DNA of 64,000 bases, taken from positions 128,001 through 192,000 of the forward strand of contig JANNXA010000033.1 of the NCBI GenBank assembly GCA_031409275.1, given 5' to 3'. This DNA is from Planctomycetota bacterium (lineage in GTDB: Bacteria > Planctomycetota > B15-G4 > SIAN01). The notes below the pieces were generated by a model, which saw only the letters and a list, made by a program, of their open reading frames with translations, did no database searches and was not told the DNA's origin. Shown piece after piece: positions 5,073 to 29,673 of this stretch. The position numbers and the translations under genes were made by a program. Positions within the stretch are counted from its first letter, which is position 1. The number at the start of each line of letters is the position of its first letter.

Positions 5073-6503
5073 TCAGCGAATCGCGACGGCGGCGTCGGAC
5101 TCGGCGGGTGGGGCCGGGAACGCGACGCCCGCCGCACGCAGCAGCGCGAACGGCGGCGTGCCGCCCGCGAAGATGAAGACGTGCTGGTTGTCGAGCGTGA
5201 CGGCGCGCGTGGAGTCTTGCTCGCGCACGGTGAGCGTGACCGCGTCACTGCCGATCACCGTCACCTCGCTGCGGAAGTAGACGGTGACCCGCCCGCCGAC
5301 CAGTCCGCTGTTGTTCCCGCTGGCATTCCCGCTGGCCTGCGCGGCCGCGATGCGTTCCTCGTTGCGCCGCTTGAGCCGGAAGAACGACTCCTTGCGGTAG
5401 CTGAGCGTCACTCGGTTGCCAGGTTGGCCAGCGAGCGCCAGCGCCGCCTCGACCGCGCTGTCACCGCCGCCCACCACGAGCACGTCGACGCCGCGGTAGA
5501 GCGCGGCATCGAGCAGGCGGTAGGCGACCTTGGTCTGCTCCTCGCCGGGGACTCCGAGCTTGCGTGGCGTGCCGCGCCGACCAAGCGCGAGCACCACCGA
5601 ACGGGCTCGCACCTCCGCGCGTTCGCCAGCCTCGCCGGTCTCGCTTTCGCCGGTGCGACGGGTGGTCACGACGAACGCGTCGCCGTCACGCAAGATCGAC
5701 TCGACGCACGTCTGCGCGCGTACGCGCAACGGGAAGCGGCGCGCGGCGTCCTCGAACAGCGAGACGAGCTCTTCCTTCAGGTACTCGTTCTTGGCCAGGC
5801 AACCGATCAGCGGCAGCTCGACCGGTTGCGTCATGACCAGCTTCTGGCGCGGATAGTGCAGCAGCGTGCCGCCCAACGCGTCCTGCTCGATCAGGACGTG
5901 GGAGAGCTCGAGCTCGATGGAACGCAGCGCGGCAGCAAGCCCCGCCGGCCCGGCGCCGACGATGGCGACATCGACCGTCTCGGCGTCACGTCGGTGGGAC
6001 GGCGCACGGTCGCGGCGCCGCGCGATCTCGTCGACCGCGGTGGTGGCCTGCCCGATGGCATGCCGGATGAGCGCGATGCCCGAGAGTTCGCCGGCGATGA
6101 AGAGGCCCGGCACGCTCGATTCCTGGACGGCGGAGAGCAGCGGCAGATCCTCGCGCAGCGCCAGCGCACCGAGTCCGACGTGGATCGCGCCGACCGGACA
6201 GGCCGTTTCGCAGCGACCGTGACCGACGCAGCGCGCGCCATGGACGACTCGCGCGACGCCGTCCAGCACCGCCAGCACCCCCTCTTCGGGGCACGCCTTC
6301 ACGCACAGCCCGCAGCCGACGCACTGCAGCGCGGCGATCTGCGGATGCTGTGCCGTCGGTTCGGCGGAGCCGCGCGCGCGCGCTTCGTCGAGCTCGGCAC
6401 GCGCCGACGCCTCGCGCTGGCGTGCCGCGCGCCGCTCGATCCAGGCCAGCGCGAGCAGCAGCGGCACGAGGGCGGCGCAGAATCCGAGGAGCGGCAGCAG
6501 CAT
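5073..6503 (-). CDS. Membrane-anchored 2x[4Fe-4S] ferredoxin / FAD-NAD(P)H oxidoreductase fusion (TrxR/FNR/YpdA-like)
   Basis: N-terminal TM helix; CVGCGLCVKACP and CVGHGRCETACP; FAD motif VAIVGAGPAG; NAD(P) motif VVGGGDSAVE; VPGLFIAGE. Confidence 0.88.
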   Translation of the reverse strand: MLLPLLGFCAALVPLLLALAWIERRAARQREASARAELDEARARGSAEPTAQHPQIAALQCVGCGLCVKACPEEGVLAVLDGVARVVHGARCVGHGRCETACPVGAIHVGLGALALREDLPLLSAVQESSVPGLFIAGELSGIALIRHAIGQATTAVDEIARRRDRAPSHRRDAETVDVAIVGAGPAGLAAALRSIELELSHVLIEQDALGGTLLHYPRQKLVMTQPVELPLIGCLAKNEYLKEELVSLFEDAARRFPLRVRAQTCVESILRDGDAFVVTTRRTGESETGEAGERAEVRARSVVLALGRRGTPRKLGVPGEEQTKVAYRLLDAALYRGVDVLVVGGGDSAVEAALALAGQPGNRVTLSYRKESFFRLKRRNEERIAAAQASGNASGNNSGLVGGRVTVYFRSEVTVIGSDAVTLTVREQDSTRAVTLDNQHVFIFAGGTPPFALLRAAGVAFPAPPAESDAAVAIR

Positions 6504-6544
6504 GAAGTCTCAGTCTCGCAAAGAGGTGCTGGAACGTGCGTCGC

Positions 6545-8206
6545 TCAAAAGCGCCAGGTGAGCCCGAGGTCGAGCGACAGCGTGTCGATCGAGTCGCCGA
6601 GGCTCTTGGCGACGCGCGTCCACAACAGCGACTTCGCGCCGAGCTGCTGCGTCAGGAACAACGACGCCGTATGGCTGAAGTACGCGTCGCCGCCGTCGAT
6701 CTCGAGCGTGGTCGCGTCGTAGCCAAGCCGCAACGAAGTGGCTGCGGTCGGAGTCCAGGTGAGACCTCCGCTGCCGCCGAAGCCCGACTGATCGAGGCCG
6801 ACGAGGTTGAACAGGGCGAGATCGCCGCCGATCGTCTCCCAGCCAAACAGCTTCGAATCGCGGGAGCGCAAGGTGACCTGCAGAGCGCTTGGAGTGCCGT
6901 CGCCCATCACTTCGGCGACCTCCTGCTCGAGCGCGAGACCGGACTTCCATGTCTCGACGGCGGCAAGGGCCGCGCGCGTGCGACCACGCCCATACAGAGC
7001 GTCGTCGGCAGCGATCTGGCGCAGCGAATCGGTGTCGGGGTTCTCGTAGTGCGACCAGGTGGCGCGCAGGCCGAAGGGTTCGCTTGCTTGCCAGAAACCG
7101 CTGGCGTGCAGCCGCGTGAGACCGGCGCCCGAGCGGCGCGCCTCGTTGCCGTCGTAGACGTCGACCTGCGCGGAGGTGCGCAGCCAGTGGCCGCCTCTGA
7201 AGTTGGCGCTGACTTCGCCAAGCAGCGCGTGCTGATCGGCACTTCCTTGGAACCAGCTCGCCATGGCGCCGCCGGTCGCGGCGAGGCGCGAGCCGCCGCT
7301 GCCGCGATGCTCGAGCGCGCCCCAGCCCGCGAGGACGAGCTCATCGCTGCGCGGCGCAAGCTCGTCGCGATCGGGACGGAAGCCGAGCAAGGCACCGACG
7401 CGCGCGCCGTCGCCGACGACCTTCTCGGCATAGCTGCCGTCGATGCGGCCGATGCCGGGCAGCGCCTGCGGGAGGAAGCGGCCGATGCCGAGGACGCTGC
7501 CGTCCTCGAAATGGCGGCGCAACACCAACGTGTCGGCGCGCAGCCGCCACTCGTCCTGCTTGGGATCGCCGTCGTAGCCATCCCCGCTGCGCCGATTCAC
7601 GTCGAAGCGGAACTGCAGTGACCACGGATCGCCGCCGAGGCGCTCGACATCGCCGCTGGCGAAGAGGCGCAGGTTGGCGTAGTCGCGACCGTTCTCCGCG
7701 TCGTGCAGCCATCCGCTGGTGAGGCCGGTGGTGCCGTGGAAGAAGTTGCCGCGCGTCGTCGTTCCCGCCGCGACGGAGGGCGCCAGCAACGGCCGGAACG
7801 GCGCGTTCGGGTCGGTGCGTTCGCCGGTCGCTGGCGCGCGCGGGGTCGTCTCGCTCGGCGGTGCCAGGCCGCGCAGCACGGCGCGATCGCCGGCCTTCAC
7901 GACCACTCCCGGCTCGGTCGACACGAACGCCGCGAAGCACGACGTCGCGCTGACGTGCCGCACTTCGAACTCGGCGAGCACGCGACCGTCGCGCTCGATG
8001 CTCCCGCGCGTGCCAGCGACGACGCCAGCATCGCTGCCTGCCCCGAGATAGACGCCGTCGGCGGCGACCTGGGTGACCGTTGCTTCAACGTCACGAGCGA
8101 CGTCGCGCGCGCTGCGATGGGCGACCTCCTGAGCCGCCGCGTTGCCGGCCGCGGCCGAGCCGAGCAGCGCGAGGAGCGTCGCCGCGATGCGGTGTGCCGC
8201 GTTCAT
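6545..8206 (-). CDS. Putative outer-membrane beta-barrel protein with small N-terminal periplasmic domain
   Basis: ATG 8206 overlaps the upstream TGA (ATGA); signal peptide MNAAHRIAATLLALLGSAAAGNAAAQ; amphipathic beta-strands; C-terminal LDLGLTWRF, a typical BAM signal. Confidence 0.78.
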   Translation of the reverse strand: MNAAHRIAATLLALLGSAAAGNAAAQEVAHRSARDVARDVEATVTQVAADGVYLGAGSDAGVVAGTRGSIERDGRVLAEFEVRHVSATSCFAAFVSTEPGVVVKAGDRAVLRGLAPPSETTPRAPATGERTDPNAPFRPLLAPSVAAGTTTRGNFFHGTTGLTSGWLHDAENGRDYANLRLFASGDVERLGGDPWSLQFRFDVNRRSGDGYDGDPKQDEWRLRADTLVLRRHFEDGSVLGIGRFLPQALPGIGRIDGSYAEKVVGDGARVGALLGFRPDRDELAPRSDELVLAGWGALEHRGSGGSRLAATGGAMASWFQGSADQHALLGEVSANFRGGHWLRTSAQVDVYDGNEARRSGAGLTRLHASGFWQASEPFGLRATWSHYENPDTDSLRQIAADDALYGRGRTRAALAAVETWKSGLALEQEVAEVMGDGTPSALQVTLRSRDSKLFGWETIGGDLALFNLVGLDQSGFGGSGGLTWTPTAATSLRLGYDATTLEIDGGDAYFSHTASLFLTQQLGAKSLLWTRVAKSLGDSIDTLSLDLGLTWRF

Positions 8207-9498
8207 TCGCGGCCATCCGGATGGCAGGAGAAGCACGCCGGGCTGCTCCAGCTGTAGCCGTTCACCCCTTGATGTTCGGAGTCCATCTTCGACTTGCGGT
8301 GCTCGTGGCAGTCGATGCAGGAGAACGCGGGGTAGTTGCCGGTCGTGTGGCAGTCGGCGCAACCGAGCCCACCGTGATTTCCGCTGAGGGGGAAGGAGTC
8401 GTGGTCGAACCTGCCATCGCCCCAAGTGGCCGGCGTGTGGCACTGCTCGCAGTTGGTGCCGAATCCGGCGGCGGCGTGGTCGGGGTTCTGCGTTCCGGCG
8501 TAGTCGTCGGCGTGACAGCTGTAGCAGTCGCGCGGCGTTCCGGCGTAGATGCCGTTCCCGTGGCATGCGCTGCACGCGAGCGACGCGTGCTGACCCTGCA
8601 GCGGGAAGGTGGTGTGGAGGAAGCCGCCCGCGCCCCAGCCGATGGGCGTGTGGCACTGCTCGCAGCTCGTTCCAAAGCCACTCGACGAGTGCGGCGGGTT
8701 CTGGGTGCCGGCGTAGTCGTTGACATGGCAGCTGTAGCAGTCGCGCGGCGTGCCGGCGAACACGCCACCCACGTGGCAGTCGGAACAGTCGACCGAGCGA
8801 TGCTGGCCGAGCAGCGCGAAGGTGGTGTGGTTGAAGTGCGCCGCGTTCCATGCGGTGGCCGAGTGGCAGCGCTGGCAGTCGTCGCGATAGCCGAGCGCGA
8901 GGTGGTCGGGACTGGTCGCGCGCGCGAGATCGTCCTGATGGCACGCGGCGCACTCGAGCGGCGCGCCGACGAAGCGGCCGACGCGCGACTGTTCATGGCA
9001 GCGATCGCAGGCGGCGGCGAGGTGAGCACCCGCCAGCGGGAAGCGCGTCTTCGCATGCTCGGCGATCAGGCCGGTTGGCTGCCATTGCTGCTGCGAGTGG
9101 CATTGCGTGCAGTCGTTGCCGAGCGTGCTGTCGTGCGGGTCAAGGTGGCAGCCACCGCAGCCGCGCACCGCGAACTCGCGCACCGGGCCGCGGTCGTTGT
9201 GGCAGCGCAGGCAGCTGGCGGTCGCGTGCGCTCCTTCGAGCGCGAGGCCCGTTTGCGCGGCGTGGTCGAAGGTGAAGTCGCTCTTCAGCACGTCCCAGCG
9301 TTCTGGCAGGTGGCAGAGCGAGCAGTCGGTCGGAAAGGTGCGATGGGGGACGAGCGGGCCGAAGCGCCCCTCGTCCCAGCTCTGCCTTGGCGCCGAGGTG
9401 AGTGCGTAGCACGCCGCCAGCAGCGAGACGCCGGCGAGCGCGAGGAGGGCGCGGCGTCGCGCAGCACGCAACGGGTCAGCGTCCGGTGTGGCAGTCAC
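8203..9498 (-). CDS. Multiheme cytochrome c, 16 CxxCH motifs, probable lipoprotein
   Basis: 16 CxxCH counted by hand; lipobox-like RRRALLALAGVSLLAAC; repeated triheme units. Start is GTG 9498 or TTG 9507. Confidence 0.92.
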   Translation of the reverse strand: MTATPDADPLRAARRRALLALAGVSLLAACYALTSAPRQSWDEGRFGPLVPHRTFPTDCSLCHLPERWDVLKSDFTFDHAAQTGLALEGAHATASCLRCHNDRGPVREFAVRGCGGCHLDPHDSTLGNDCTQCHSQQQWQPTGLIAEHAKTRFPLAGAHLAAACDRCHEQSRVGRFVGAPLECAACHQDDLARATSPDHLALGYRDDCQRCHSATAWNAAHFNHTTFALLGQHRSVDCSDCHVGGVFAGTPRDCYSCHVNDYAGTQNPPHSSSGFGTSCEQCHTPIGWGAGGFLHTTFPLQGQHASLACSACHGNGIYAGTPRDCYSCHADDYAGTQNPDHAAAGFGTNCEQCHTPATWGDGRFDHDSFPLSGNHGGLGCADCHTTGNYPAFSCIDCHEHRKSKMDSEHQGVNGYSWSSPACFSCHPDGRE

Positions 9499-11380
9499 GA
9501 CATTCAACTCCGAGCGGAACGTAGTGGATCATCACGCGATCATCGGAGCGTCCACCCGCGACCTTCACCGGCGAATGGCAGGCCGAGCACGCGAGCCGCG
9601 CGTGCACGCCATCGAGCGCGAATCGCGAGTCGCGTTGGTGGTCGAACGTCACCGGAAGCCACCGCTCGTCGGACTGGTGGCAACGGTTGCAATCGTCGCC
9701 CTTGCGCGTGAGCTGGCCTCCGTGCGGATCGGCGTGGCAGCTCTTGCAATCGCGCGGCGTGCCGGCGAATGCCCGAACCGCGGTGTCGTTCGCGCGGTGG
9801 CAATCGTTGCACGCGACGGCGAGGTGCGCACCGGTGAGCGCTGGTTGATGGCGCTGCGCGGTGAAGGTCGATGGCGCGAAATGACGCTCGTCGTGGCAGC
9901 TCGCGCAGCCCCCCGGCCGCGTGCGGAACTGCCCGCCGTGCACGTCGACGTGGCATTGGTCGCAAGCCGTTGGCGTCGCGCGGAAGCGCACGGGCGCACC
10001 CGGTTCGGGTGCACGATGGCACCCATCGCACCCCACGTTGGCATGGGCGCCGAGAAGCTCGGGATGGCGCGCCGCGAAGTCGAAGCGCGACGGCGTGAAG
10101 CGCGACTCGTCGTGGCACGCCTCGCACCCGTCGCCGCGCGCGGCGAACTGGCCACCATGCGGATCGACGTGGCACGCGCTGCAGGTGGTGGGGGTGGCGA
10201 CGAAACGCGCCGGAGCACCTGGTGTCGGCGGCTGATGGCATCGTTCGCAGGCCGCGTCCGCGTGACGAGCGCGCAACGGCGGCGCGTGCGCCGCCGCGGT
10301 GATTCGCGACGGAACGAAGTGGGTCGCGTGGCACTCCGCGCAATCGGATTCACGGGCGCCGAACTGGCCACCGTGCGGCGACTCGTGGCAGGTAGTGCAA
10401 TCGGACGACGCACGTCCGGGGAATCGCTTCGCGAACGGAACCGCCGGATCGTGGCAGGCGCGGCACTCGCGATCGGCATGCGGCGGCGTCAGCGCGAATC
10501 CGAGTTTCGCATGCTCGTCCACGGTGACGCGAGCCGACGCGGCGGCGAAGACGAGGTCGCTCGCATCGTGGCAGGTGGTGCAGCGACCGGCTGGCAGCGC
10601 GCGGTGCGGCGTCGCATGGCACTGCTCGCACGTCGTGCCTCGCACCACGGCGAAGTCGAGTGGGGCGCTGCGCACCATCGTCGCGTCGATCACCGTCGCC
10701 GCCGGTACGACCGCGGATGGATGGCACTTCGCGCAGCTCACCTGCGCGTGAGCTCCAAGCAGGGGAAAGTGCTGCGCATGCTCGAACGCCGCGGCCGGCT
10801 TGAAGCTCTCCTGCCCATGGCAAGCGCCGCAGTCATTGCTCATCGCGTCGCCGTGCGGGTCGTCGTGGCAGCTCGCGCACGCCTGCGTGAGCCCGAGGTA
10901 GGTGCGTCGCGTCGAAGCGATCGCGAGGCGATCAGCGGTCCCGTCGGGCAGCATCGCGACGTGACAGCGCGCGCAGTCGAGCGGCTGGTGGGCGCCGGTC
11001 AGCTTGAAGTCGAGGTGGCGGTGGGCATTCGCCGACGCGGATCCCTCGCCCCAGGAGTGCTCATGGACCAGCGGGAAGTCGGCACCCCAGTGCTCGCCGT
11101 GGCATCCGCCGCAATCGAGCGGCCGCTCGGCGGCGAGTGAGCCGTGCCAACCGGTGCCGCTCGACAACTGCGCGGCGATCTCGGCGTGGCAGGAGGTGCA
11201 GCCATCGACCGCGCCGACGTGCGCGTGGCATCGTTCGCAACCGTCGAGTCCATGCAACTCGGGCAAGGCAGCGTGAACCGCGGAGAGATCGCCGGGGCTA
11301 GGCGCCACGCGGGCGAGGTTGATGGCCAGCGCAAGGACGGTGAGGCCAAGGAGCGTGAAGACGATGGCACGCGCGCTCAT
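9476..11380 (-). CDS. Multiheme cytochrome c, 23 CxxCH motifs
   Basis: 23 CxxCH counted by hand; ATG 11380 overlaps the upstream TGA; N-terminal hydrophobic segment followed by SPGDLSAVH. Confidence 0.92.
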   Translation of the reverse strand: MSARAIVFTLLGLTVLALAINLARVAPSPGDLSAVHAALPELHGLDGCERCHAHVGAVDGCTSCHAEIAAQLSSGTGWHGSLAAERPLDCGGCHGEHWGADFPLVHEHSWGEGSASANAHRHLDFKLTGAHQPLDCARCHVAMLPDGTADRLAIASTRRTYLGLTQACASCHDDPHGDAMSNDCGACHGQESFKPAAAFEHAQHFPLLGAHAQVSCAKCHPSAVVPAATVIDATMVRSAPLDFAVVRGTTCEQCHATPHRALPAGRCTTCHDASDLVFAAASARVTVDEHAKLGFALTPPHADRECRACHDPAVPFAKRFPGRASSDCTTCHESPHGGQFGARESDCAECHATHFVPSRITAAAHAPPLRARHADAACERCHQPPTPGAPARFVATPTTCSACHVDPHGGQFAARGDGCEACHDESRFTPSRFDFAARHPELLGAHANVGCDGCHRAPEPGAPVRFRATPTACDQCHVDVHGGQFRTRPGGCASCHDERHFAPSTFTAQRHQPALTGAHLAVACNDCHRANDTAVRAFAGTPRDCKSCHADPHGGQLTRKGDDCNRCHQSDERWLPVTFDHQRDSRFALDGVHARLACSACHSPVKVAGGRSDDRVMIHYVPLGVECRDCHTGR

Positions 11381-12333
11381 CGCCACCACCTCGAGAAGTC
11401 GAGCGAGCCCCAGCGCACCGCGAGTGCGATGTGGCAGATCGCCGTCCCCACCATCACCAGAGCCAGCCAGCGGTGGAGGAAGCGCCACGAAGCCATCAGG
11501 GCCGAGAGGTCACGCAGGCGCGCCAGTCGCTGCGCCTCGCGCAGGATCGTGGCCAGCAGCGGCTCGATGCGGCGCCGCACGGCCGGGTCGGGTGACCGTT
11601 CACGCAACAGCTCGCGGTAGCGCGCATGGGCGGCGCGCGCGTTCGCGTCGCCGAAGAGGACGCCGAAGAGCGCGCGCAGGCGCGACGGCGAGCCCTGCGT
11701 CTCCGCCGGAAGCAGCTCGAGCGGCGGCAGACCGAGACCCGTGAGCTGGGTACGAAGCTGCGTGAAGCGGGAATGGGCCTCGTCCAGCGAAAGCTCGCGC
11801 CCCTCGCGCGTGCGGGGCAGCTGGGCGAGGACGTAGCGGCCGATGATGCCGGTCGCGAGCACCACGCCGAGCGCCACGCTCGCGACCGTGGCGGAGGCGC
11901 TGCGCAGGTGACCGGCCGCGTGCACCAGCACGCAGCCTCCCGCGAGTAGCCCCGATACGACATGGAGGTCCATCCAGCCGCGCAGGCCGCCGAGCCGCGT
12001 GCTGGCGACGAGGCGTCGACGCACGAGGTAGGCGAGGTTGATCCCCATCAGTGCGACCGCGGCGACTCCAAGCGCGAGGCCGACGTCGCCGCTCGATCGC
12101 AGGCGCGGGTGGCGCGGATCGAGGGCTTGTGCGGTCAGGGGCGCCGTGTAGTAGCTGCATTCCGTGCACAGGAGTTGCACGAGGAAGCCGATGCCCGCCA
12201 GCAGTGCCAGCGGCGCCCACCAGGCGGTGCGCAGTCGATTCGCTGGATCGTTCTGCTGGATCACCGGGTCACGAACTCCGCCGCGCCGTCCAGGAAGTGG
12301 AATGGGCGTCGGACGGACGGACGCCGCGTTCAC
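11377..12333 (-). CDS. Integral membrane protein, ferric-reductase/cytochrome-b-like transmembrane domain
   Basis: Several TM helices carrying paired His (WMDLHVVSGL...VLVH; WRFLHRWLA...ICHIA). Start codon uncertain. Confidence 0.75.
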   Translation of the reverse strand: MNAASVRPTPIPLPGRRGGVRDPVIQQNDPANRLRTAWWAPLALLAGIGFLVQLLCTECSYYTAPLTAQALDPRHPRLRSSGDVGLALGVAAVALMGINLAYLVRRRLVASTRLGGLRGWMDLHVVSGLLAGGCVLVHAAGHLRSASATVASVALGVVLATGIIGRYVLAQLPRTREGRELSLDEAHSRFTQLRTQLTGLGLPPLELLPAETQGSPSRLRALFGVLFGDANARAAHARYRELLRERSPDPAVRRRIEPLLATILREAQRLARLRDLSALMASWRFLHRWLALVMVGTAICHIALAVRWGSLDFSRWWR

Positions 12334-12396: not shown

Positions 12397-15300
12397 TCAG
12401 CGGCCGGGGGTGAACTCGCGCAGGCGCAGCTGGCGCAGTTCGACGCGACTGCCATCGCCGAGCACGAATCCGAACGTCCCGTTGCGGCGACCGTCGTGGT
12501 CCTCCGTGTCGACCGTGACGGAACCATTCAGCTGGACGGTCAGGCGCGGGCCGACGGCGGTGACGAGGAAGTGGTTCCAGCCGGTGCGATCCGGCAACGG
12601 CCACCAGATCTCTTCGCGCGGTTGCACGAGGACGCCGCGACCCTCGGGCTCGGTCAGGCGGCCCCAGGCCGAACCTCCGGCATAGGTGGCGTAGGAGAGC
12701 GGCGCGCGCGAGTCGACTCCGTCACGGAGCGGCTCGGCCTGGCGGAACAGGAATCCGAGCGATTGGGTCGGAGATCCAAGTCGCGCCTCGAACTCGAACG
12801 CGAAGTCGCCGACCGTCGGCGCTAGCCCCGTCCAGCCGTTGACGTCGTTGTCGGCGGCGACGAGCACTCCGTCGACCAGGCTCCATCCTTGCGGCACCTG
12901 TGGCGCGATTCCGTCGAGGAAGGGCCGCCAGCTCGGCTGTGCCGCCGCCGGCTCGATCGTCGGCGCCAGCAGCCACGCGGCGAGATCGCTGATCTGCTCC
13001 AACGAAAGGGCATCCGCGAGCCCTTCGGGCATGATCGACTTGGTGGCCGGCTTGCGCTTCTCGATCTGCGCGGCGAGCACCTCGACCTGCTTGCCGGTCG
13101 CATCGACCAGCACGACCCGTTTGTCGTCGGCGATCAACGGCAGGCCCGAGATCACGTCTCCGTTCTTGAGGAAGACGTTCTCGCCGCGGTACTGATCGGA
13201 GATCGTGCGCGAGGGCGTGACCATCGACTCGAGCAGGTCGCGGGCGCCGAAACGCGAACCGATGGTGGTGAGATCGGGGCCCACCGCGACGCCGAAGTCG
13301 CCGCGCTTGTGGCACTTGGCGCAGAGCTGCTGGTAGAGCAGCGCGCCGTCAGGCGGCGAGCGGTGCGGGGCGTGCAACGTGCGCTCGACGAAAGTGAGGA
13401 CGCGATCGAACTCGCGCGGCTCCGCGGCGGAGGCGGGCGCGGCCGGTGCCGACGCCGCCGCCTTGATCCGCTCGGCCGCCTCCTGATCGAGCGCCGTCCG
13501 CTCGCTGTCACTGAGTCCGACGTCCGCATCGTCGCGGATGTTGGTCAGGTAACCGACGTAGCTCATGCCGCCGGAGTTGGCGCGGATCGCCTCATCGAGC
13601 CAACGGTGCAGTTCGACGCGCGCGCCTGCGGGCCACCCCTCCTTCACGCAGCGCAGCGCATCGGCGTAGAGGATCTTCTGCTCGCGCGACGGCTCGAGGA
13701 CGAAGGTGCGCCACAGCAGTTCGGCCGCGCCTTTCGGGGCGGCATTCGCGATCAGCTGGGCCCAGTCGCGATTCGCGGCCGGATCGACGCATGGGAAGCC
13801 GGTGAGGAGTTGCTCGCCGGCGAACTTGGCGTCAGGCGCGGCGATCCGCCAGAGCTGCAGCGCGCGCAGCACGGCGTGACGGAGCTCGCGCGGCGATTCG
13901 CTGTCGAGCGAGCCCAGCAGCACGACGCCGAGCTGCAGCACGACGGCGGCATCGGTGTCGTCGACCGGCGCGCGTCCGACCAGCCGCATGCGCGCCAGCG
14001 CGATCATGCTCTCGGCCTGCGCCATGGGCGACTTCGCCGCGGCGAGGGTCGCGGCCACTTCGCCGGCGGGTCGCCGCTCGAGTTCGCGCGCGGCGAGGAA
14101 GCGCCGGAAGCGGTCGGGCGAGGCGAGTTCGGTCGCAAGCGCGGCGACGGGTGCGCTGTGCAGTTTCTGAGCCAGGCTGGTGGCGGTGTCGCGGTCGGCA
14201 GCGGGAGCGACGGCCGGGGTCGCGGCAACGGGCAGCTCGCTCGCCGCAGGATCGACGCAACGCAGACGGTGGACGCCGCCGACCGTGCCACGACCGCCGA
14301 CCGCGAAGAGGAGCGAACCATCCGCGTCCATCGCGAGGTCGGTGACATTCAGCGGGTGACCGCGCAGGAGGACATCCGTGCTGGCGGTGTAGCTCACGCC
14401 GCGCGGCGTCGCGCGGAAGGCGTAGATCACTCCCAGCGACCAGTCTCCGGCGAGAAGAGCGCCCTGGAAGCGTCGCGGAAACTGCGTGCCCGTGACCAGG
14501 CACATGCCCGTCGGCGAACCGCGACCCGCTTCGACCGCGGGCGGCAACGAATCGGCGGCCACGTTCGGCCACACGCTCGAACCGGTCCTCCAGCCGTATT
14601 CACCGCCCGGCACGACGTGGACGATGCGGACCGGTCGGTACCACGGCAGCCCGACGTCCCACTCCATGTCGGAGTCGAAGGTGAAGAGCTCGCCACGCGC
14701 GTCGAACGCGAGGTCGTAGTGGTTGCGGAAGCCGGCGGCGAAGAGTTCGCAGCGGCCGCTCTCCGGTTCGACGCGAAGGATGATGCCGCCGGGTGCCTTG
14801 CACTCGGTGGCGTGGCCACGCGGATCGAGATAGGTCGGCAGCAGATGCCCTTCGTAGGTGATCGAGTAGGGCGATCCCGCCGCGGGTGGCTGGCCGAGGC
14901 GCGCGTGGTTGCCGACGGCGATGTAGAGCGCGCCGTCGGGGCCGGGCACGATCGCATGCGGGCCGTGCTCGCCGAGGTCGCCATCGAGAGCGACGACCTT
15001 GATCGGCGCGGTCGCACCTTCGGGGAGGCGATAGAGGCCGTGGCCGTTGGGCCCGGCTCCGGTGAACCAGGTCGTGCCGTCCTGCCAGTACATCCCCTGG
15101 CAGCCTTGGATCGCGGCCGTGAACGGCGTGATCTCCTCGGCGCGTCCATCGCCATCGGCATCGACGAGCGAGAAGATCGGCCCGCCCTCGACGTTCGCCA
15201 GCAGTCGCCGCGGACCCGCGGTGGTCAGCGCGACGACGGAGCCGAAGCCGTCGGCGACCGTCTCGATCACGAAGCCGGGCAGCGGATCGAAGCTCGGAGC

Positions 15301-15876
15301 CGGCGGGGCGTGGAGTTCACCCCACGGAGCGGCGCCGTAGGGGGCGACGACGCGCGCGCGCGCCGCGTCGGCCGCCATCGGCGCGCTGGCGGTGTCGGGG
15401 TCATACGGACGGCAGAGCCACGCCTCGTCGGACACCACGACCGGGCGGGTGCCGTCGGCACAGCGGACCTCGACGGCCAGCAAGAAGCCGGCGGGACCGC
15501 CCTCGTTGGCGACGCGCGCGACGAACTCGTTGCGGCCGCGGCGCAGCAGCTCCGTGACGTCGAGCGTCGTCAAGCGCGACCAGTCGTCGCCACGTCCAGC
15601 GACGGTCCCATTCACGCTCAGCCGAAAGCGGTTGTCGCTCGAGACGGCGACCAGCGCGCGCGTCGGCTCGGAGCCGAGCTCGAACGTGCGCGTGAGGAGC
15701 CACTCGTCCTTGCCGTCCGCGGTGGCCTTTGCATCGCCCCAGATCCAGCGTGCTTGCGCGAGTGGTGCGTTCTGGCCGGTGAGTCGCGTTGCGACGCCGA
15801 GCAGCGCGAGTGCGGTCAGCACGTGGACGAAGGCGGCGTGGTGGCGTCGGGGCGAACGGTGGAGGTGCGTTTCCAT
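12397..15876 (-). CDS. PVC-type membrane-bound dehydrogenase / heme-binding CxxCH protein with N-terminal glycosidase-like beta-sandwich and C-terminal DUF1080-like domain
   Basis: GEHGPHAI, GFRNHYD, DSDMEWD..PWYRP, GRGSPTG; CAKCH...GPDLT; SIMPEGL; C-terminal WNHFLVTAVG..VQLNG. Confidence 0.85.
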   Translation of the reverse strand: METHLHRSPRRHHAAFVHVLTALALLGVATRLTGQNAPLAQARWIWGDAKATADGKDEWLLTRTFELGSEPTRALVAVSSDNRFRLSVNGTVAGRGDDWSRLTTLDVTELLRRGRNEFVARVANEGGPAGFLLAVEVRCADGTRPVVVSDEAWLCRPYDPDTASAPMAADAARARVVAPYGAAPWGELHAPPAPSFDPLPGFVIETVADGFGSVVALTTAGPRRLLANVEGGPIFSLVDADGDGRAEEITPFTAAIQGCQGMYWQDGTTWFTGAGPNGHGLYRLPEGATAPIKVVALDGDLGEHGPHAIVPGPDGALYIAVGNHARLGQPPAAGSPYSITYEGHLLPTYLDPRGHATECKAPGGIILRVEPESGRCELFAAGFRNHYDLAFDARGELFTFDSDMEWDVGLPWYRPVRIVHVVPGGEYGWRTGSSVWPNVAADSLPPAVEAGRGSPTGMCLVTGTQFPRRFQGALLAGDWSLGVIYAFRATPRGVSYTASTDVLLRGHPLNVTDLAMDADGSLLFAVGGRGTVGGVHRLRCVDPAASELPVAATPAVAPAADRDTATSLAQKLHSAPVAALATELASPDRFRRFLAARELERRPAGEVAATLAAAKSPMAQAESMIALARMRLVGRAPVDDTDAAVVLQLGVVLLGSLDSESPRELRHAVLRALQLWRIAAPDAKFAGEQLLTGFPCVDPAANRDWAQLIANAAPKGAAELLWRTFVLEPSREQKILYADALRCVKEGWPAGARVELHRWLDEAIRANSGGMSYVGYLTNIRDDADVGLSDSERTALDQEAAERIKAAASAPAAPASAAEPREFDRVLTFVERTLHAPHRSPPDGALLYQQLCAKCHKRGDFGVAVGPDLTTIGSRFGARDLLESMVTPSRTISDQYRGENVFLKNGDVISGLPLIADDKRVVLVDATGKQVEVLAAQIEKRKPATKSIMPEGLADALSLEQISDLAAWLLAPTIEPAAAQPSWRPFLDGIAPQVPQGWSLVDGVLVAADNDVNGWTGLAPTVGDFAFEFEARLGSPTQSLGFLFRQAEPLRDGVDSRAPLSYATYAGGSAWGRLTEPEGRGVLVQPREEIWWPLPDRTGWNHFLVTAVGPRLTVQLNGSVTVDTEDHDGRRNGTFGFVLGDGSRVELRQLRLREFTPGR

Positions 15877-17600: not shown

Positions 17601-19763
17601 TCAGGTCGCCTCGCCGGCCGTTCGTTTCGCCGCCGTCAGGGTCTCTTTTCGCTTCGCGCGTGCCTCGAGCGCCAGCCAGAGTCCGGCCAAGACGACCAGC
17701 GATTCGACACCGTAGGTCGTCCACAGCCAGAAGCTCACGCCGTCGGTTTCACCGTACGCATGCAACCCGACCCCGAGCTGATTCACGTGCCACCAAGAGA
17801 AGGTGACGATCGTCGTGCCGAAGACCGCCGCGGTGCAGATCCCCAGATCGCGTAGGTAGCCACCCATGCGTCCGTGCAGGATCGCGAGCTCCCAAAGGCA
17901 GATCATGAGCGCGCCGTTCTCCTTCGGGTCCCAGCCCCAGAAACGGCCCCATGAGTCGTTGGCCCAGACGCCGCCGAGGATCGTGCCGACCACGCTGAAC
18001 AGCAGTCCGAAGCAGATCACTCCGTAGGTCATGCGCGCGACCGAGCGATAGAAATCGGGGTCGCCACGGCGCAGCCCGAACAGCTTGCCGAGGATGTAGA
18101 CGTGCGCGAGCAGGCCGGCCAGCAGCCCGGCTGCGTAGCCGATCGTGACGCTCGTGACGTGGGTCGACAGCCAGAAGTTGGTGTCGAGCACCGCGACGAG
18201 CTGCGGCATGGTGTCGATGCCGCGATCGAACGCTTCCTTCACCTCGTAGCGCTGCGTGAGGAAGAGTCCGGCCGCGCCGAGCAGGGCCGCGAAGACCACC
18301 GCGACGCGGCGCCGATCGATCAGCTCGATGATCAGCGCCACCAGCACGACGGCAGCGGTGATGAACGGGATCGTCTCGTAGAGCGTGGAGACCGGCGGAC
18401 GGGCGCGCAGGTAGCCGCGCCAGACGATGGCGGCGACGTGCAGCGCAAACGGCGCGAAGAGCAGCCACGGCAGCGCGCGATTCAGCTTGTGGTCGGCGCG
18501 CAGGAGCCAGCCCACCGCCACCAGCACGAAGCACAGCACGTAGAGCACGAGCGCGCGGAAGAAGAGGTCGGCCTTGTAGTAGCCGATCTCGCTGTCGATC
18601 TTCGCGTACTGCTCGCGGCCAGTCGCGGTCGCCACCAGCGAGCCACGTACTCGCTGCATCGCCGCCTTCATGCGCGGCGGGTCGTTGCGCGCGTCGAACG
18701 CGTCCTCCCAACCGACGATCACCGGCAGATGGAGCGCGAGGAGCGCGGCGTCGCCCTTCGCGACGCGCTGCTCGATCTCGCCCAGCGTGAGCCACGACTC
18801 CTCGTCGCTGCCGCCGGGTCGGATCTGTGCCGGGCCGGAGTTGTACATGGTCGTCTTGACCATCGGCGCCGGCTTGGCGTCGGGCGGGTAGAGAGTCAGG
18901 ACGCTCGCGAAGTCGGCCATCTGCTGTGCGGTCTGGAGCAATCGATCGATGGCGATGCGCGTGGTGTCGTCACCGGCCGATGCCTGGCGTGACGCAAGTT
19001 CGCTCGAGTGCTGCAGCAGCAGCGAGAAGCGGGTGCTTGATTCGTTCCCGAGCAGATCGCCGAGCGAGGCCTCCTTCGGGAGCTCGAGGAACTCGCGCTG
19101 CGCGAAGACCAATGAGCCCAGCAGCCCCTCGTACTGGTTCACCTTCGTCGCGAGCTGGATCAACTGCTCTTCGAGGTAGCTGCGCCCCTTGGCCTCGCGC
19201 TTCACCGGATCGTTCATGAGTGCGCCCGCGCGCGCGAAGAGCTGCGGGCGACCCGGCGACAACTCGAGGTAGCTGTAGCGATCGCGCTTCTTGCGGCCGC
19301 CGATGCGCTCGACGCCGATGGCATCGAGGAGCTCCCACGTCTGCAGCTGGAAGCACGGGTAGTGGCGCGACGCTTCGGGGAAGAACATGCAGTCGAGCAG
19401 CCACTCGCTCGGCGTCAGCTTGTTCTCGATGTCGTCGTTCTTGTCGTCGGGCGTGCCGCGGTCGTCGATCCAGGTCAACGTGCGCGAACCGTTCAGTTGC
19501 AGGAGCTTGAAGCCCGCGAACGTGGAGAGCGGCTTCACGCGTCCCTGCTCGAGGATCGGGATCTGGGCGAAGAGCTCGACGATCTGTGGATCCCATGGAG
19601 CGGCGCGGCGGACTTCGTGCGGCTCGGCCGCGTGGTCGTGGCCCGCGTGGTCGTCGGGCGCCACGGCCGGTGACTGCGCGATCGCGCCACCGGTCGTCGC
19701 CACGCACGCCAGCGCCAGCGCGGCCAGGCGCGTCCACAGCTTCCGGACGATCGAGAGTGTCAT
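17601..19763 (-). CDS. ccsA: Cytochrome c biogenesis protein CcsA/ResC (System II heme lyase) with large periplasmic N-terminal domain
   Basis: WWD domain WANDSWGRFWGWDPKENGAL; LDTNFWLSTHV; GVGLHAYG; GRVKPL; multiple TM helices. Confidence 0.92.
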   Translation of the reverse strand: MTLSIVRKLWTRLAALALACVATTGGAIAQSPAVAPDDHAGHDHAAEPHEVRRAAPWDPQIVELFAQIPILEQGRVKPLSTFAGFKLLQLNGSRTLTWIDDRGTPDDKNDDIENKLTPSEWLLDCMFFPEASRHYPCFQLQTWELLDAIGVERIGGRKKRDRYSYLELSPGRPQLFARAGALMNDPVKREAKGRSYLEEQLIQLATKVNQYEGLLGSLVFAQREFLELPKEASLGDLLGNESSTRFSLLLQHSSELASRQASAGDDTTRIAIDRLLQTAQQMADFASVLTLYPPDAKPAPMVKTTMYNSGPAQIRPGGSDEESWLTLGEIEQRVAKGDAALLALHLPVIVGWEDAFDARNDPPRMKAAMQRVRGSLVATATGREQYAKIDSEIGYYKADLFFRALVLYVLCFVLVAVGWLLRADHKLNRALPWLLFAPFALHVAAIVWRGYLRARPPVSTLYETIPFITAAVVLVALIIELIDRRRVAVVFAALLGAAGLFLTQRYEVKEAFDRGIDTMPQLVAVLDTNFWLSTHVTSVTIGYAAGLLAGLLAHVYILGKLFGLRRGDPDFYRSVARMTYGVICFGLLFSVVGTILGGVWANDSWGRFWGWDPKENGALMICLWELAILHGRMGGYLRDLGICTAAVFGTTIVTFSWWHVNQLGVGLHAYGETDGVSFWLWTTYGVESLVVLAGLWLALEARAKRKETLTAAKRTAGEAT

Positions 19764-19776
19764 GACGAACTCCGGT

Positions 19777-21018
19777 TCACGATTGCGCGGCGGGCGTCGT
19801 CGCCGGCCGTCGGGTCGATCGGATGAAGCGCTTCAATCGCAGCGAGAAGTGCAGGAGCAGGCCGATGGCGATGACGTAGCACGACCACTTCGGCCACTGG
19901 TCGGAGGGGTTCTCGACCACGGTGAAGACCGAATAGAGCGGCTGGTTCACGTTGCCGTCCTGCGGGCCCCAGCTGGTCTGGAACAGCGTGTAGCCCTTCT
20001 CGCGCAGCGGCTCGTTCATGGTGATCTTGAGCGCCGTCTCCTGGCTGCCGTCGAACTTCGTGACGTTGCTCCAGTAGGTGCGCGCCATGCCCGTGCCCGG
20101 ATGGAACTCGACGATGAACTTGTCGAGGCGCACGTCGAACGGCAGCTCGTAGCGCCGCTTGCCCAGATCGATGAGCCAGCGCTTGCCGCCGGCCTCGGCG
20201 GTCAGCGGCTGCCGCTGCGCGCCCCAGAGGATCGCGTCGACGTGCCGTCCCGAGGACTTCTCGACCACGGTGATGTAGGCGCCCGGCTGGTTGAACTCCG
20301 CCTCGACTTGCGGCTCGGCCGCCAGCACGACGTAGCCATCGATCACCGGCCCATCGCCCTTGAACATCGGCCCCTGCGGCACGACGCGGCAGTTGCGGAA
20401 GACCTTCGTGACCAGGAGGTCGAAAGGCAGATCGTCCGCCGTGAAGCGGTGCGTCGAGCCCGCCTCGAGGTTGCGCCACTCTTCAGCGGCGATCACATGC
20501 TCGCGAACGCGGCCGGATGCACCGGCGTCGCGCAGCGTGATGTCCCAATCGTGGAAGCTGAAGTACTCGCGGCTCTTCTCCTGCGGGAAGACCATCAACG
20601 AGCCTTCGTGCGACCAGCGGAACTTGACGAATCCCGCCGCCAGCATCAGCAGGATGCCGACGTGCGTGATCATGATCCCGGCGCGGGAGCGATCCTTGCG
20701 CAGCCGGATCATCCCGCCGAGCACGAGGTTCACCGTCAGCAGCGCCATCAGCAGATAGACGCCGGGCAACGGCACCGGGATCTCGGGAATCGTCGCCAGC
20801 GGTGCCGAGGTGACTTCCGCCCACGGCAGCCGCAGCACGAACGGCCCGGCATGGTGGATGAGGAACAGCGACTCGAAGTACTTCTTCTGCGTCTCGAAGA
20901 GGCCGAACTCCACCTGCTCCAACGTGCCAAGCCACGTCAGCAGCAGCAGCAAGACCAGCAGCACCGCGGCCAGGCCGAACGAGGAAAACAGCGCGAAGAG
21001 CTTCTTCATCAGTCCCAT
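19777..21018 (-). CDS. resB: ResB/CcsB-like cytochrome c biogenesis protein
   Basis: N-terminal TMs, GIMITHVG, LPFDVRLDKF, ITMNEPLREKGYTLFQTSW; directly upstream of ccsA. Confidence 0.82.
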   Translation of the reverse strand: MGLMKKLFALFSSFGLAAVLLVLLLLLTWLGTLEQVEFGLFETQKKYFESLFLIHHAGPFVLRLPWAEVTSAPLATIPEIPVPLPGVYLLMALLTVNLVLGGMIRLRKDRSRAGIMITHVGILLMLAAGFVKFRWSHEGSLMVFPQEKSREYFSFHDWDITLRDAGASGRVREHVIAAEEWRNLEAGSTHRFTADDLPFDLLVTKVFRNCRVVPQGPMFKGDGPVIDGYVVLAAEPQVEAEFNQPGAYITVVEKSSGRHVDAILWGAQRQPLTAEAGGKRWLIDLGKRRYELPFDVRLDKFIVEFHPGTGMARTYWSNVTKFDGSQETALKITMNEPLREKGYTLFQTSWGPQDGNVNQPLYSVFTVVENPSDQWPKWSCYVIAIGLLLHFSLRLKRFIRSTRRPATTPAAQS

Positions 21019-25400: not shown

Positions 25401-25899
25401 TTTCGAACACCGCCTCATGCGAAACCCCGGCTTGCGGCAAGATCGCCCAGCCGGTGGTCGGGGCGCCGTCGACGGCGGCGGCCACGTTGAACGCCGCCTG
25501 TTCGAAGTCGGCGCTTGGTCGTTCGAGCAGCACGGTCTTGAAGCCGTCGGAGTTCTTCGGCGCCTGCTCGACGACGAACTCGCTCAACACGAAGTTGCCG
25601 TTCGGCGCGAGCCCGGGTCCGCCGGAAGGGAATCCCGGATCGGCCAACGCCTCGATCCGCAGTCCGGTGATGCCGTTGGCGTCGACGAGGCACTCGAACG
25701 TGAGGCTCTCCGTCGCCGCTACCGCTCCGCCGACGCGGATCGCGCCGTCGCCCTCGAGCGTCAGCGTGGATCCATTCGCCGCGCTCATCCGCGCCGGTGT
25801 GAGGATCTGGAAGCGCGTCGTCTCCTGCGCCGCCGCGTGAGGCGCCAGCGCGATCGCGAGGAGAGCTGGAACGCACCGGACGACGTGGCGCCGACTCAT
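22438..25899 (-). CDS. Large secreted multidomain protein: prenyltransferase/squalene-cyclase-like alpha-barrel, beta-sandwich modules, C-terminal discoidin-like domain
   Basis: ATG overlaps the DUF1552 stop; signal peptide; GVRWLLDQQELDGLW, DLSNGQYAALGL, YWLYGVERVG, QKPEGSW; C-terminal ATASSQ..AVDN..GW..GLGEVEL. Confidence 0.72.
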   Translation of the reverse strand: MSRRHVVRCVPALLAIALAPHAAAQETTRFQILTPARMSAANGSTLTLEGDGAIRVGGAVAATESLTFECLVDANGITGLRIEALADPGFPSGGPGLAPNGNFVLSEFVVEQAPKNSDGFKTVLLERPSADFEQAAFNVAAAVDGAPTTGWAILPQAGVSHEAVFETQHDLGFDAGVKLKLRLDFNLGGQHIPGRLRLAYTTAPRPLRARRDLTAVNEAQGRVGAAIARGVRWLLDQQELDGLWAARAEDVKFGMTSLAAYTLLKCGVERDHPAVQRAATRIQCEPASSVYAAGFELLFLAELQDEALQGRIEETARRLLSWQQGGGGYSYPAAAPPDLSNGQYAALGLRAAAKRGVKIPPEAWIKLGDATLTHQEKASGAYEGAGFGYYPGGPPTGSMTAGGTCIVKIVDEQLAKTGASKTAFVTGWRKGVSWLDRNFAADSNPRSGASWLWYWLYGVERVGGLCDVAELAGKSWYREGARIGVETQKPEGSWDGDGGPQPTTCFALLFLARATSAVSGVTVRAENLWGGDDAQFDVSLRGSGDAPLTLWVSSFGGAAKLFEWPGEAGQGLHVDHVTYTVPGRALFGDSREAPTPWRLSESEPSGAWATPGFDDGKWKSVTGAVGDPQATGIAVRTSSAAAEFWLRREFTLDEAPIVDPQLFVAAPALPAAVPTAPLLCLFDEEADFAAKLTEASAGGSVATRDGNAANGRLWLAVQPQQVHHPALPGWNFPIASEPRPGEFRYLRFSWRKEGGGGVMIQLAVNGSWGAQTVRRHAGTNDLDWPSTALDDDAPREWRAETIDLVAAFGGATTLTGLALVPMAGGLAGFDAIYLARSPADFDAIPRSTAAHANVVRPLVDALPPGADAVATLEVLLNGTRVFSANSPIAPYSPVPAEAPLATLLHPGKNVVALHVRRGATFAGVDLALLDQRVLATVAGDPARPSGPERFATQVNFDRNGTYPIRALVRVRGAPTQSPAEMLFSSPLVSVPIRMAKDPELLGYAADPGRNLLGPGNATATASSQFDGNFAPAFAVDNLTSRGWLSADGDRRPTLSIELKKPTRADTVWITPIQQRGFEADRQGWRVRRVEVALDRGKSGTFEVLLPADGRKGVIRLPRVTVVRRLDVRMLDVSDLPAAKSAIGLGEVELQLRK

Positions 25900-27254
25900 G
25901 CGAGCGCCGAGAGGTGTCCGGTCGAGTCCCCGAAGCTCGACGCGCGTGCCCCGGTGCGATCGTGCAAGGCAAGGAAGAGGTTGCACAGCGGCGTGGCCGG
26001 CGCGACGCGGACGTGGCGACCGCTCTTCACCGTGCCGTTGCCGCCGCCGGCCAGCAGGATCGGCAGCTCATCGTGGTTGTGGGCGTTGCCATCGGAGATG
26101 CCCGCGCCGTAGAGCACGAGCGAGTGGTCGAGCAACGTGCCGTCGCCCTCGTTCATGGTGGCGAGCTTTCCGAGGAAGTAGGCGAGCTGCTCGACGTGGA
26201 AGCGGTCGATCTTCTCGACGCGCTCGATCCGGATCGGGTCGTCGCGGTGGTGCGACGTCTCGTGGTGGCCATCGGGCGCGCCGATCTGCGGATAGCTGCG
26301 GTTGTCGCCGTCGTTGGCGAACATGTGCGTCGCCACCCGGGTGAGGTCGGCCTGGAACGCCAACGCCAGCAGGTCACACAGCAGCCGAGCATGCTCGCCA
26401 TGGTCGGCGGGCATTGCGGCGGGCAGGTCGATCACCGGTACCGGCCGGGTCGCCGCGTCGGCCTCCGCCTTGGCGAGGCGCTGCTCGATCTCGCGCACCG
26501 CCGTCAGGTACTCGTCGAGCTTCCGGCGATCGGTCGTGCCGAGCTGCACGGACAGGCGCGTCGCATCGTCGCGGGCGTAGTCGAGCAGGCTCTGCTTGCG
26601 GGCGAGGCGGCGCGCGCGCTGCTGCGGCGTCAGGCCGTCCGTCGCGCCGAAGAGGCGCTCGAAGAGGGCGCGCGGGTCGGTCTCCTTCAATTGCGGGGTC
26701 GTCGGCGAGCGCCACGAGATGTTGCACGAGTAGGCGCACGAATAGCCCGAGTCGCAATTGCCCGACGTCAGCGGCGGCGTGCAACCGACCTCGAGCGAGC
26801 GAAAGCGCGTCTCGTGGCCGATCCGTTCGGCCAGCACCTGGTCGATCGAGATGCCGTTGTGGATCTCGGCCCCCTCGGTCTTCTTCGGGTGGGCCCCCGT
26901 GAGGAAGCAGGCGGCGGAACGGGCATGGTCGCCTGGCCCGTCGCCGAGCGCCTCGGCGTTCTTCTGCGCCAGTCCGCTCAGCACCAGTAGCCGGTCGCGC
27001 ACACCCGCCAGTGGCTGGAGCGTCGGCGACAGCTCGAAGCTCGCCCCCTCGGTGGTGGGCGTCCACGAGTTCATCCACTTGCCGTTGGGCGCGAAGAGGA
27101 AGGCGAATCGCAGCGGTGCCGCGGAGGCGGCGACTCCGCGCGCCAAAGCGGCGCGAGGCAGCATCGCTTCGAGCCACGGCAGCGCCAACGCGACGCCGGC
27201 GCCGCGCAGGAAGGTCCGGCGGGAGAGCGGCGTTCGAGTCAGGAAGTGGGCCAT
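25896..27254 (-). CDS. DUF1552 family protein (Tat signal)
   Basis: SRRTFLRGAGVALALPWLEAM; GPGDHARS; CDSGYSCAY; HHETSHH; DGNAHNHDELP. Confidence 0.92.
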   Translation of the reverse strand: MAHFLTRTPLSRRTFLRGAGVALALPWLEAMLPRAALARGVAASAAPLRFAFLFAPNGKWMNSWTPTTEGASFELSPTLQPLAGVRDRLLVLSGLAQKNAEALGDGPGDHARSAACFLTGAHPKKTEGAEIHNGISIDQVLAERIGHETRFRSLEVGCTPPLTSGNCDSGYSCAYSCNISWRSPTTPQLKETDPRALFERLFGATDGLTPQQRARRLARKQSLLDYARDDATRLSVQLGTTDRRKLDEYLTAVREIEQRLAKAEADAATRPVPVIDLPAAMPADHGEHARLLCDLLALAFQADLTRVATHMFANDGDNRSYPQIGAPDGHHETSHHRDDPIRIERVEKIDRFHVEQLAYFLGKLATMNEGDGTLLDHSLVLYGAGISDGNAHNHDELPILLAGGGNGTVKSGRHVRVAPATPLCNLFLALHDRTGARASSFGDSTGHLSALA

Positions 27255-27261
27255 GGCGCGA

Positions 27262-29577: not shown

Positions 29578-29673
29578 CACGTGCCGTCCTGCGCGCGCCG
29601 CCGCGAGCCCGTTTGATTCATGATCCCCGTCGACGCGCAAGGTTCCGCCGGCGGCGGATCGTAGCCGCCGCTC

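Follow-up and report, generated by a model that had tools for sequence, protein, structure and literature searches.

A five-gene operon at the locus

The window analysed here is a stretch of 64,000 nucleotides (positions 128,001 to 192,000 of contig JANNXA010000033.1, assembly GCA_031409275.1) from a Planctomycetota bacterium, and our subject is an operon within it of five co-oriented minus-strand open reading frames (ORFs), 12333-5073. In order, these encode an inner-membrane protein (IMP), a 23-heme cytochrome c, a 16-heme cytochrome c, an outer-membrane beta-barrel and a membrane-anchored Fe-S/FAD/NAD(P)H flavoprotein (Table 1). Adjacent genes share ATGA overlaps at 11377-11380 and 8203-8206 and a 23-nt overlap at 9476-9498, and a gap of 41 nt precedes the flavoprotein gene. 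Translation of the ORFs gave the five genes, the 23 and 16 CxxCH motifs and the junctions exactly as an earlier note on this DNA had described them. Across the 64 kb, CxxCH occurs 0, 3, 0 and 1 times in the four non-cytochrome frames as against 23 and 20 times in the cytochrome frames; because the motifs are nearly confined to these two frames, a chance origin is excluded. The operon has a GC content at third codon positions (GC3) of 0.81-0.88 and its neighbouring genes 0.87-0.92. We rejected a horizontally acquired island, as GC and GC3 resemble those of the neighbours. The closest relatives, with 65-80% identity where the source was named, belong to genomes labelled Planctomycetota. Promoter and terminator scans of the operon found nothing, and a search for RNA runs containing this DNA listed none, which speaks neither for nor against the operon.

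By sequence, four of the five genes fit the published definition of PCC3, a porin-cytochrome system with a porin, extracellular and periplasmic cytochromes and an IMP of about 300 residues that has five helices, an SGXXG site and two WX3HX13H motifs (He et al. 2017, PMC5566968). Hoover et al. 2023 (PMC9900912) give heme counts of 21-27 and 10-35 for its cytochromes, and PCC3 is described as functionally unverified (10.1101/2025.02.27.639646). The named reference proteins of PCC3 are Slit_0867-0870 and Slit_1446-1449 of Sideroxydans lithotrophicus ES-1; our assignment rests on the definition and on homology to proteobacterial clusters of the same anatomy. The conduit itself is therefore not new, and the earlier note's statement that the cluster was unrecognised did not survive, since the IMP, too, is placed in the PCC3 cluster by the published account (PMC5566968). 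The new element would instead be the coupling of a published conduit type to an Fe-S/FAD/NAD(P)H flavoenzyme. In the literature searched, no passage tied PCC3 to an FAD/Fe-S enzyme; this scope excludes subscription journals, bioRxiv supplements and, in He et al., Figure 6, Supplementary Figure 4 and the body of Table S4, and it comprised general searches and term searches of PMC5566968, PMC9900912, 10.1101/2025.02.27.639646, PMC8788666, PMC11429942, PMC7399161, PMC6295460, PMC7096707, PMC5317091 and 10.64898/2026.05.27.727921.

Table 1 Features of the operon and of its surroundings in the window (numbering of the window; residues numbered in each protein)
Feature	Position	Strand	Details
IMP, PCC3-type	12333-11377	-	318 aa, GTG start
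First WX3HX13H motif of the IMP	11920..11976	-	W120-H124-H138, TM3 (translation)
Second WX3HX13H motif of the IMP	11431..11487	-	W283-H287-H301, TM5 (translation)
23-heme cytochrome c	11380-9476	-	634 aa, 23 CxxCH
16-heme cytochrome c	9498-8203	-	431 aa, 16 CxxCH, lipobox
Outer-membrane beta-barrel	8206-6545	-	553 aa, C terminus LTWRF
TM-anchored Fe-S/FAD/NAD(P)H flavoprotein	6503-5073	-	476 aa
Ferredoxin domain of the flavoprotein	6198..6323	-	C61-C64-C67-C71 and C92-H95-C98-C102, His for one Cys ligand
PVC-type heme-binding protein gene	12397-15876	-	co-oriented, 63 nt upstream of the operon
System II cytochrome c maturation genes (ResB-like, CcsA)	17601-21018	-	5 kb upstream of the operon
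DUF1552 + DUF1592/1588 gene pair	25896-29640	-	planctomycete type
Gene like di-heme oxidoreductase	40961-42631	+	

The inner-membrane protein and the flavoprotein

The IMP has five hydrophobic helices, both in its sequence and in a helical AlphaFold2 model (predicted local distance difference test score 85), so that the 4-His membrane protein of the earlier note was kept and refined. The four motif histidines (H124, H138, H287 and H301) and W283 are invariant across 54 aligned relatives, and the SGXXG site on the fourth transmembrane (TM) helix reads TGIIG, with both glycines invariant and the Thr/Ser variable in the family. We predict that the IMP is a di-heme b protein. The top fold match of its model was a designed di-heme bundle (Z 11.1, rmsd 2.7 over 103 positions), followed by E. 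coli CybB (Z 10.3), STEAP1, cytochrome b561, Dcytb, FdnI (Z 8.9) and hydrogenase cytochrome b (Z 8.4). For a helical bundle such scores are modest, and unrelated bundles were also matched, with the di-heme bundles lying at Z 9-11. Foldseek with the same model returned no significant match, which does not exclude kinship, and Pfam Ferric_reduct (PF01794) reached 20.5 bits over 28 residues, below its cut-off of 28. The protein is homologous to the IMP of a proteobacterial cluster of the same anatomy, L079 (E 9e-15). In many relatives (P0020-P0145) the N terminus is extended by a long acidic stretch rich in proline, in which the motif P(I/L)V(I/L)LP(D/E)D recurs, and one, P0124, appears to start with a Ser/Thr kinase domain, which hints at regulation.

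The flavoprotein joins an N-terminal TM anchor to a two-cluster ferredoxin domain and an FAD/NAD(P)H domain of the YpdA/TrxR fold. Its best match in the PDB was 7a76 (E 8e-23), and 7a7b, a YpdA, was also found. The flavin domain is circularly permuted: the C-terminal FAD motif stands ahead of GxGxxG in 28 of 30 proteobacterial copies. The redox CxxC of TrxR is absent, with VAYRLLD aligned in its place, and the protein scored 76.6 against TIGR01292 (cut-off 343) and 132 bits against TIGR04018 (cut-off 340). A thiol reductase of the TrxR/YpdA type was rejected on both grounds. Because the enzyme lacks this CxxC and has a ferredoxin domain of its own, we suggest that its outlet passes single electrons. 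A basic motif of the SYRK..R type is typical of NADPH use, and from its presence we infer that the enzyme prefers NADPH. We also considered whether the histidine-ligated cluster is universal and rejected this: all 41 seed sequences, which had been selected partly by the motif, have the histidine, but only 12 of the 30 proteobacterial copies, an independent set, do so at the position equivalent to His95 (Cys in 16, Ser in 2). An ORF of 1,092 residues at G000:C51:272125-275403 (L162) encodes a related Pyr_redox domain with a C-terminal Fer4 domain, a third domain order in this flavoenzyme family.

The flavoenzyme travels with the conduit and is often fused to the IMP

With the flavoprotein as bait, we fetched the best 80 of 177 loci. 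The IMP was present in 68, a large cytochrome in 69, the barrel in 56 and all parts in 48, and the five loci with no other part were short or ended close to the gene. Relative to the IMP, the flavoprotein gene lay just before it in 30 loci, just after it in 7 and in the window's order in 20; it was fused to it in 9 and on the opposite strand in 2, and the fetched DNA of the remaining 12 held no IMP. The synteny that the earlier note had named as a check thus extends over many phyla in various arrangements, with at least five gene orders in Planctomycetota, Calditrichota, Zixibacteria, KSB1, Ignavibacteria, Acidobacteriota, Bacteroidota and Proteobacteria.

Because this set is biased to the flavoprotein, we reversed the bait. 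In one proteobacterial class, sampled with 300 genomes, an IMP profile found 39 carriers; of its 43 matches we fetched 40 and set aside two that were of another type. The flavoprotein was found in 31 of the resulting 38 PCC3-type loci (fetched 20 kb or less), at no more than 2.5 kb from the IMP in 28, mostly divergent, and it accompanied 18 of the 20 complete four-gene clusters. Counted per genome among the approximately 300, 33 had both proteins, 3 had the IMP without the flavoprotein and 4 the reverse. Among metagenome loci close to L079, 10 of 18 contained the flavoprotein, and most of the misses had less than 1 kb upstream. In the window's own phylum, 42 of 301 genomes encode it.

No other redox gene family recurred across the loci, and an iron-uptake neighbourhood was rejected, as no TonB or Feo genes recurred beside them. 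The only other widely recurring neighbour was a signal-bearing Sel1 and ankyrin-repeat gene in 29 loci, all proteobacterial (L079, L119-L156); it usually lies directly after the flavoprotein gene and is absent from the window. Cultured carriers include Saltatorellus ferox Poly30 and Emticicia oligotrophica DSM 17448, a plasmid of which holds all five genes and ccsA, their products being annotated only as cytochrome c3, NAD(P)-binding or hypothetical proteins. Emticicia and Saltatorellus are aerobes, as is Algoriphagus.

The flavoprotein and IMP form a single chain in 25 of the 150 best IMP relatives, in both orders, the membrane-first order being represented by two (P0088 and P0154). Nine of the flavoprotein-bait loci, that of Saltatorellus ferox among them, also have a fused gene. 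In a quick tree, a split with 100% support had fused forms on either side of it, and on our reading of the helix counts both orders would keep the flavin domain cytoplasmic. These fusions back the earlier proposal that the flavoprotein couples directly to a b-heme membrane protein. The genome itself has a paralogous cluster of this kind (G000:C28:21556-31152, L160) with a fused gene, a 23-heme cytochrome, a homologous barrel and proteins of 7 and 11 hemes. A further cluster (G000:C43:10384-18244, L161) has a PCC4-like core, in which an HX13H IMP and a 10-heme cytochrome are grouped with a 9-heme LVIVD-repeat ORF and with a redox gene for a cNMP-binding/Fer4 protein that has no flavin domain.

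Because the flavoenzyme accompanies such wires across many phyla, frequently as one chain with the IMP, the wire is likely to be fed by cytoplasmic NAD(P)H and not by quinones. He et al. proposed the IMP as a quinone-active di-heme b protein (PMC5566968). On a reading of this kind, a quinone site in the IMP would link the wire to the quinone pool; the flavoprotein would then be either a docked NAD(P)H:quinone feeder or a side branch. We regard this as unlikely, although it deserves to be taken seriously: some clusters have no adjacent flavoprotein and, as a point that also weighs against NAD(P)H feeding, CybB, FdnI and hydrogenase cytochrome b, to which the IMP fold was matched, are quinone-reactive di-heme cytochromes. 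Taken alone, however, a quinone-linked conduit fails to explain why a cytoplasmic NAD(P)H enzyme is repeatedly fused to the IMP and co-occurs with it almost one to one. MsrQ, the b-heme membrane protein reduced by the flavoenzyme Fre, can be read both ways. It does bind ubiquinone, which favours a quinone site, but there the ubiquinone cannot donate and acts as an acceptor (PMC12525009).

The multiheme cytochromes and the barrel

The 23-heme cytochrome has an N-terminal signal or anchor, 27.6 residues per heme, no cysteine outside its motifs and 32 histidines outside them, and it is 29% identical over 575 residues (E 3e-39) to the 21-heme periplasmic cytochrome of L079. It is likely to be a periplasmic wire, a location taken from the N-terminal signal only. 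The 16-heme protein has one cysteine beyond its motifs, in the lipobox LLAAC31, and an in-frame TTG at 9507 offers an alternative start. It is a candidate outer-membrane or surface cytochrome; a search for PDB sequence relatives found none. The two cytochromes belong to one repeat family (E 4e-32 to each other), and both have approximately 27 residues per heme and enough spare histidines for bis-His ligation. Very large members of the family occur elsewhere, with at least 67 (L039), at least 58 (L014) and at least 69 (L121) CxxCH motifs.

The fourth protein modelled as a 22-strand outer-membrane barrel with a small all-beta N-terminal domain (about residues 40-112), in agreement with the barrel expected from the earlier note. 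Its structural matches were 22-strand outer-membrane barrels (Z up to 16.4). No solved porin-cytochrome barrel was among the top matches, which does not exclude kinship. No Pfam or NCBIfam family matched the barrel, and the likeness of the N-terminal domain to FlgT_C was weak (2 of 12 homologues, below cut-off). In a profile comparison by HHalign, the barrel family aligned with proteobacterial PCC3-type porins with a probability of 98.7% (E 3.7e-16), compared with 0.5% for a reversed control.

It is conceivable that NAD(P)H feeds this apparatus and that the electrons go no further than the periplasm or outer membrane, where they would be stored in a heme capacitor, used in repair or used to reduce a solute admitted by the barrel; the barrel would be a channel or a cytochrome secretion pore. 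The best barrel matches, 22-strand TonB-dependent transporters (Z 15-16) and ushers, fit such a role, as do the shared repeat family of the cytochromes and a lipobox seen only in planctomycete-type orthologues (6 of the 15 N termini inspected). Porin-less clusters of an IMP, a cytochrome and a redox protein also exist (PMC5566968, Table S6), and the core of the C43 cluster is similar. We nevertheless consider this improbable. The barrel is homologous to PCC3-type porins and is present in 56 of the 80 flavoprotein-bait loci, many of the others being cut off by a contig end or by the limit of the flank. Beside the cluster there is no recurring TonB, Feo or substrate-binding family, and approximately 27 residues per heme is a wire-like density.

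A proposed route from NAD(P)H to the cell surface

Our preferred reading, held with moderate confidence, is that the operon encodes a PCC3-type conduit with its own cytoplasmic flavoenzyme, which would move NAD(P)H electrons out to the cell surface and bypass the quinone pool. The genes, motifs, homologies, co-occurrence and fusions on which this rests were observed and the folds predicted, whereas cofactors, contacts, direction and quinone bypass are proposed. The anchored flavoprotein would accept hydride from NAD(P)H onto its FAD and pass single electrons by way of its two Fe-S clusters to the IMP, at the b-heme nearer the cytoplasm, a contact suggested by the fusions. The second b-heme would then reduce the 23-heme periplasmic wire, and from there electrons are predicted to go through the 22-strand barrel, reach the 16-heme lipoprotein and leave for an acceptor outside the cell. 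The inner-membrane half would act as a split flavocytochrome, like a split NOX, STEAP or MsrQ-Fre system.

By textbook energetics, outward flow would run downhill, aided by the membrane potential but spending it. As export would spend this potential, its role is likely to be redox balancing or the reduction of extracellular substrates and not energy-conserving respiration. The earlier note had left acceptor and donor on an equal footing; this symmetry is doubtful, as the energetics favour export. The opposite direction, in which electrons from Fe(II) minerals, cathodes or partner cells would reduce NAD(P)+ at the flavoprotein, seems to us very improbable. Ferredoxin-NADP reductases (FNRs) of the TrxR type are reversible, which counts towards inward flow. 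So do the first proposal of PCC3 from Fe(II) oxidisers (PMC5566968) and the up-regulation, during iron oxidation, of the IMP of one PCC3 copy in Sideroxydans CL21 (10.1101/2025.02.27.639646). Inward flow, which takes the electron to the negative side of the membrane and onto NAD(P)+, would, however, need a donor near or below about -450 mV, an estimate from textbook values that lies far below Fe(II) and therefore excludes it. Moreover, both PCC3 clusters of ES-1 were down-regulated on Fe(II) relative to thiosulfate (PMC8788666), and on magnetite one copy went largely undetected in that strain, the extracellular cytochrome Slit_1448 not being detected in the data reported (PMC11429942).

Several further observations weigh against export from NAD(P)H. 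Near the IMP, 7 of the 38 IMP-bait loci have no complete flavoprotein, although one of them has a fragment; of the 36 IMP-bearing genomes, 3 lack it; and one locus, L118, has none in 10 kb upstream. Because the sampled genomes are related, the co-occurrence counts overstate independence. The histidine-ligated cluster is not a constant of the flavoproteins. The 16-heme protein is nearer to the periplasmic cytochrome of L079 (E 3e-40) than to its extracellular one (E 1e-15), and the gene adjoining the ES-1 IMP Slit_1446 encodes an HD phosphohydrolase (PMC12016527). The proteome tables of that strain do not contain Slit_0871, and the pyridine-nucleotide oxidoreductases that they list may or may not include a flavoprotein of this kind.

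At present PCC3 is viewed as a possible inlet for Fe(II) oxidation whose electrons end up in the quinone pool, and genome surveys score it accordingly. A pairing of the PCC3 IMP with an NAD(P)H flavoenzyme would make export the likely direction, and membrane potential would be spent and not conserved; extracellular electron transfer would then extend to planctomycetes, Calditrichota, Zixibacteria, KSB1, Acidobacteriota and Bacteroidota. A broader claim, which we put forward tentatively and which may well not hold, is that PCC3 has been misread: it would be a five-part, quinone-independent, NOX-like exporter from cytoplasmic NADPH to the surface, carried by about one-eighth of the genomes sampled (this phylum and one proteobacterial class), including organisms with oxygen reductases, and would constitute a third route of extracellular electron transfer. 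Given NOX- and MsrQ-like outward flow, it would not be an iron-oxidase inlet. The fused flavoprotein-IMP version, at 740 residues, makes the link between flavoenzyme and IMP addressable as one protein.

Genomic setting

The host genome (5.6 Mb, 93% complete) encodes two heme-copper oxidase-family subunits. Upstream of the operon lie System II cytochrome c maturation genes, the genome's only such matches (Table 1); ccsA is also found near the cluster in L034, L065 and L070, in addition to the Emticicia plasmid. The PVC-type heme-binding protein gene is kept next to the operon in no loci other than L001, L002 and L075, those of the three closest relatives. The DUF1552 and DUF1592/1588 pair and the gene resembling di-heme oxidoreductase are ordinary for the phylum. 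Approximately 28 ORFs of the genome have at least three CxxCH motifs, and further 10- and 13-heme cytochrome genes lie on contigs C14, C20 and C30.

Comparison with known systems

The window resembles PCC3 in an IMP of about 300 residues with five helices, two WX3HX13H motifs (on TM3 and TM5) and (S/T)GXXG; in a probably periplasmic cytochrome whose 23 hemes fall within the range of 21-27, at approximately 27 residues per heme; in a second cytochrome within the range of 10-35, here with 16 hemes and a lipobox and nearer in sequence to the periplasmic type; and in a porin with 22 strands, as in the L. cholodnii cluster (PMC5566968). It differs in that PCC3 is defined as a four-gene, quinone-linked, proteobacterial system, whereas the window has a fifth, Fe-S/FAD/NAD(P)H gene in a planctomycete host, and in that its barrel has the small all-beta N-terminal domain in place of SPOR/TPR domains.

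PCC4 and the porin-less clusters of multiheme cytochrome, HX13H IMP and other redox protein (PMC5566968, section 16 and Table S6) share a related IMP with an adjacent redox gene. However, the periplasmic cytochromes of PCC4 have 4, 5 and 10 hemes in place of 23 and 16, there is no extracellular cytochrome and the domain order is another; He et al. drew the electrons of these clusters to quinone. One locus, L157, has an 810-residue Pyr_redox/cNMP/Fer4 protein beside a more distant HX13H IMP, similar in length to the unnamed 'other redox proteins' of Table S6.

MtrCAB, MtoAB and Geobacter Pcc likewise combine a barrel with periplasmic and lipoprotein multiheme cytochromes, and they are fed by separate quinol dehydrogenases. 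Identity with MtrAB was rejected: there was no MtrB family match, and TIGR03508 (DmsE/MtrA) gave 34.9 bits against a cut-off of 192. YpdA/Bdr and the TrxR-like FNRs resemble the window flavoprotein in lacking a redox CxxC, in their NADPH-type motif and in being its PDB matches; the window flavoprotein differs from them in its membrane anchor, in a ferredoxin domain with two clusters at the N-terminal side and in being circularly permuted.

For the inner-membrane half, the closest parallel is with MsrQ-Fre, STEAP and NOX, in which electrons from an NAD(P)H flavoenzyme of the cytosol, either fused or a protein of its own, enter one or more membrane b-hemes that reduce an acceptor across the membrane; b-heme proteins of the ferric reductase domain (FRD) family couple cytosolic reductases to outer acceptors in this way (PMC12525009). 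With regard to the FRD/NOX trait of two bis-His b-hemes across the membrane, the IMP has four invariant histidines in two HX13H pairs, which might bind hemes in this way. These systems have six helices and the IMP five, with Ferric_reduct below cut-off, and the window would join to this core a dehydrogenase of the TrxR/YpdA fold with a ferredoxin domain, a multiheme wire and a porin outlet.

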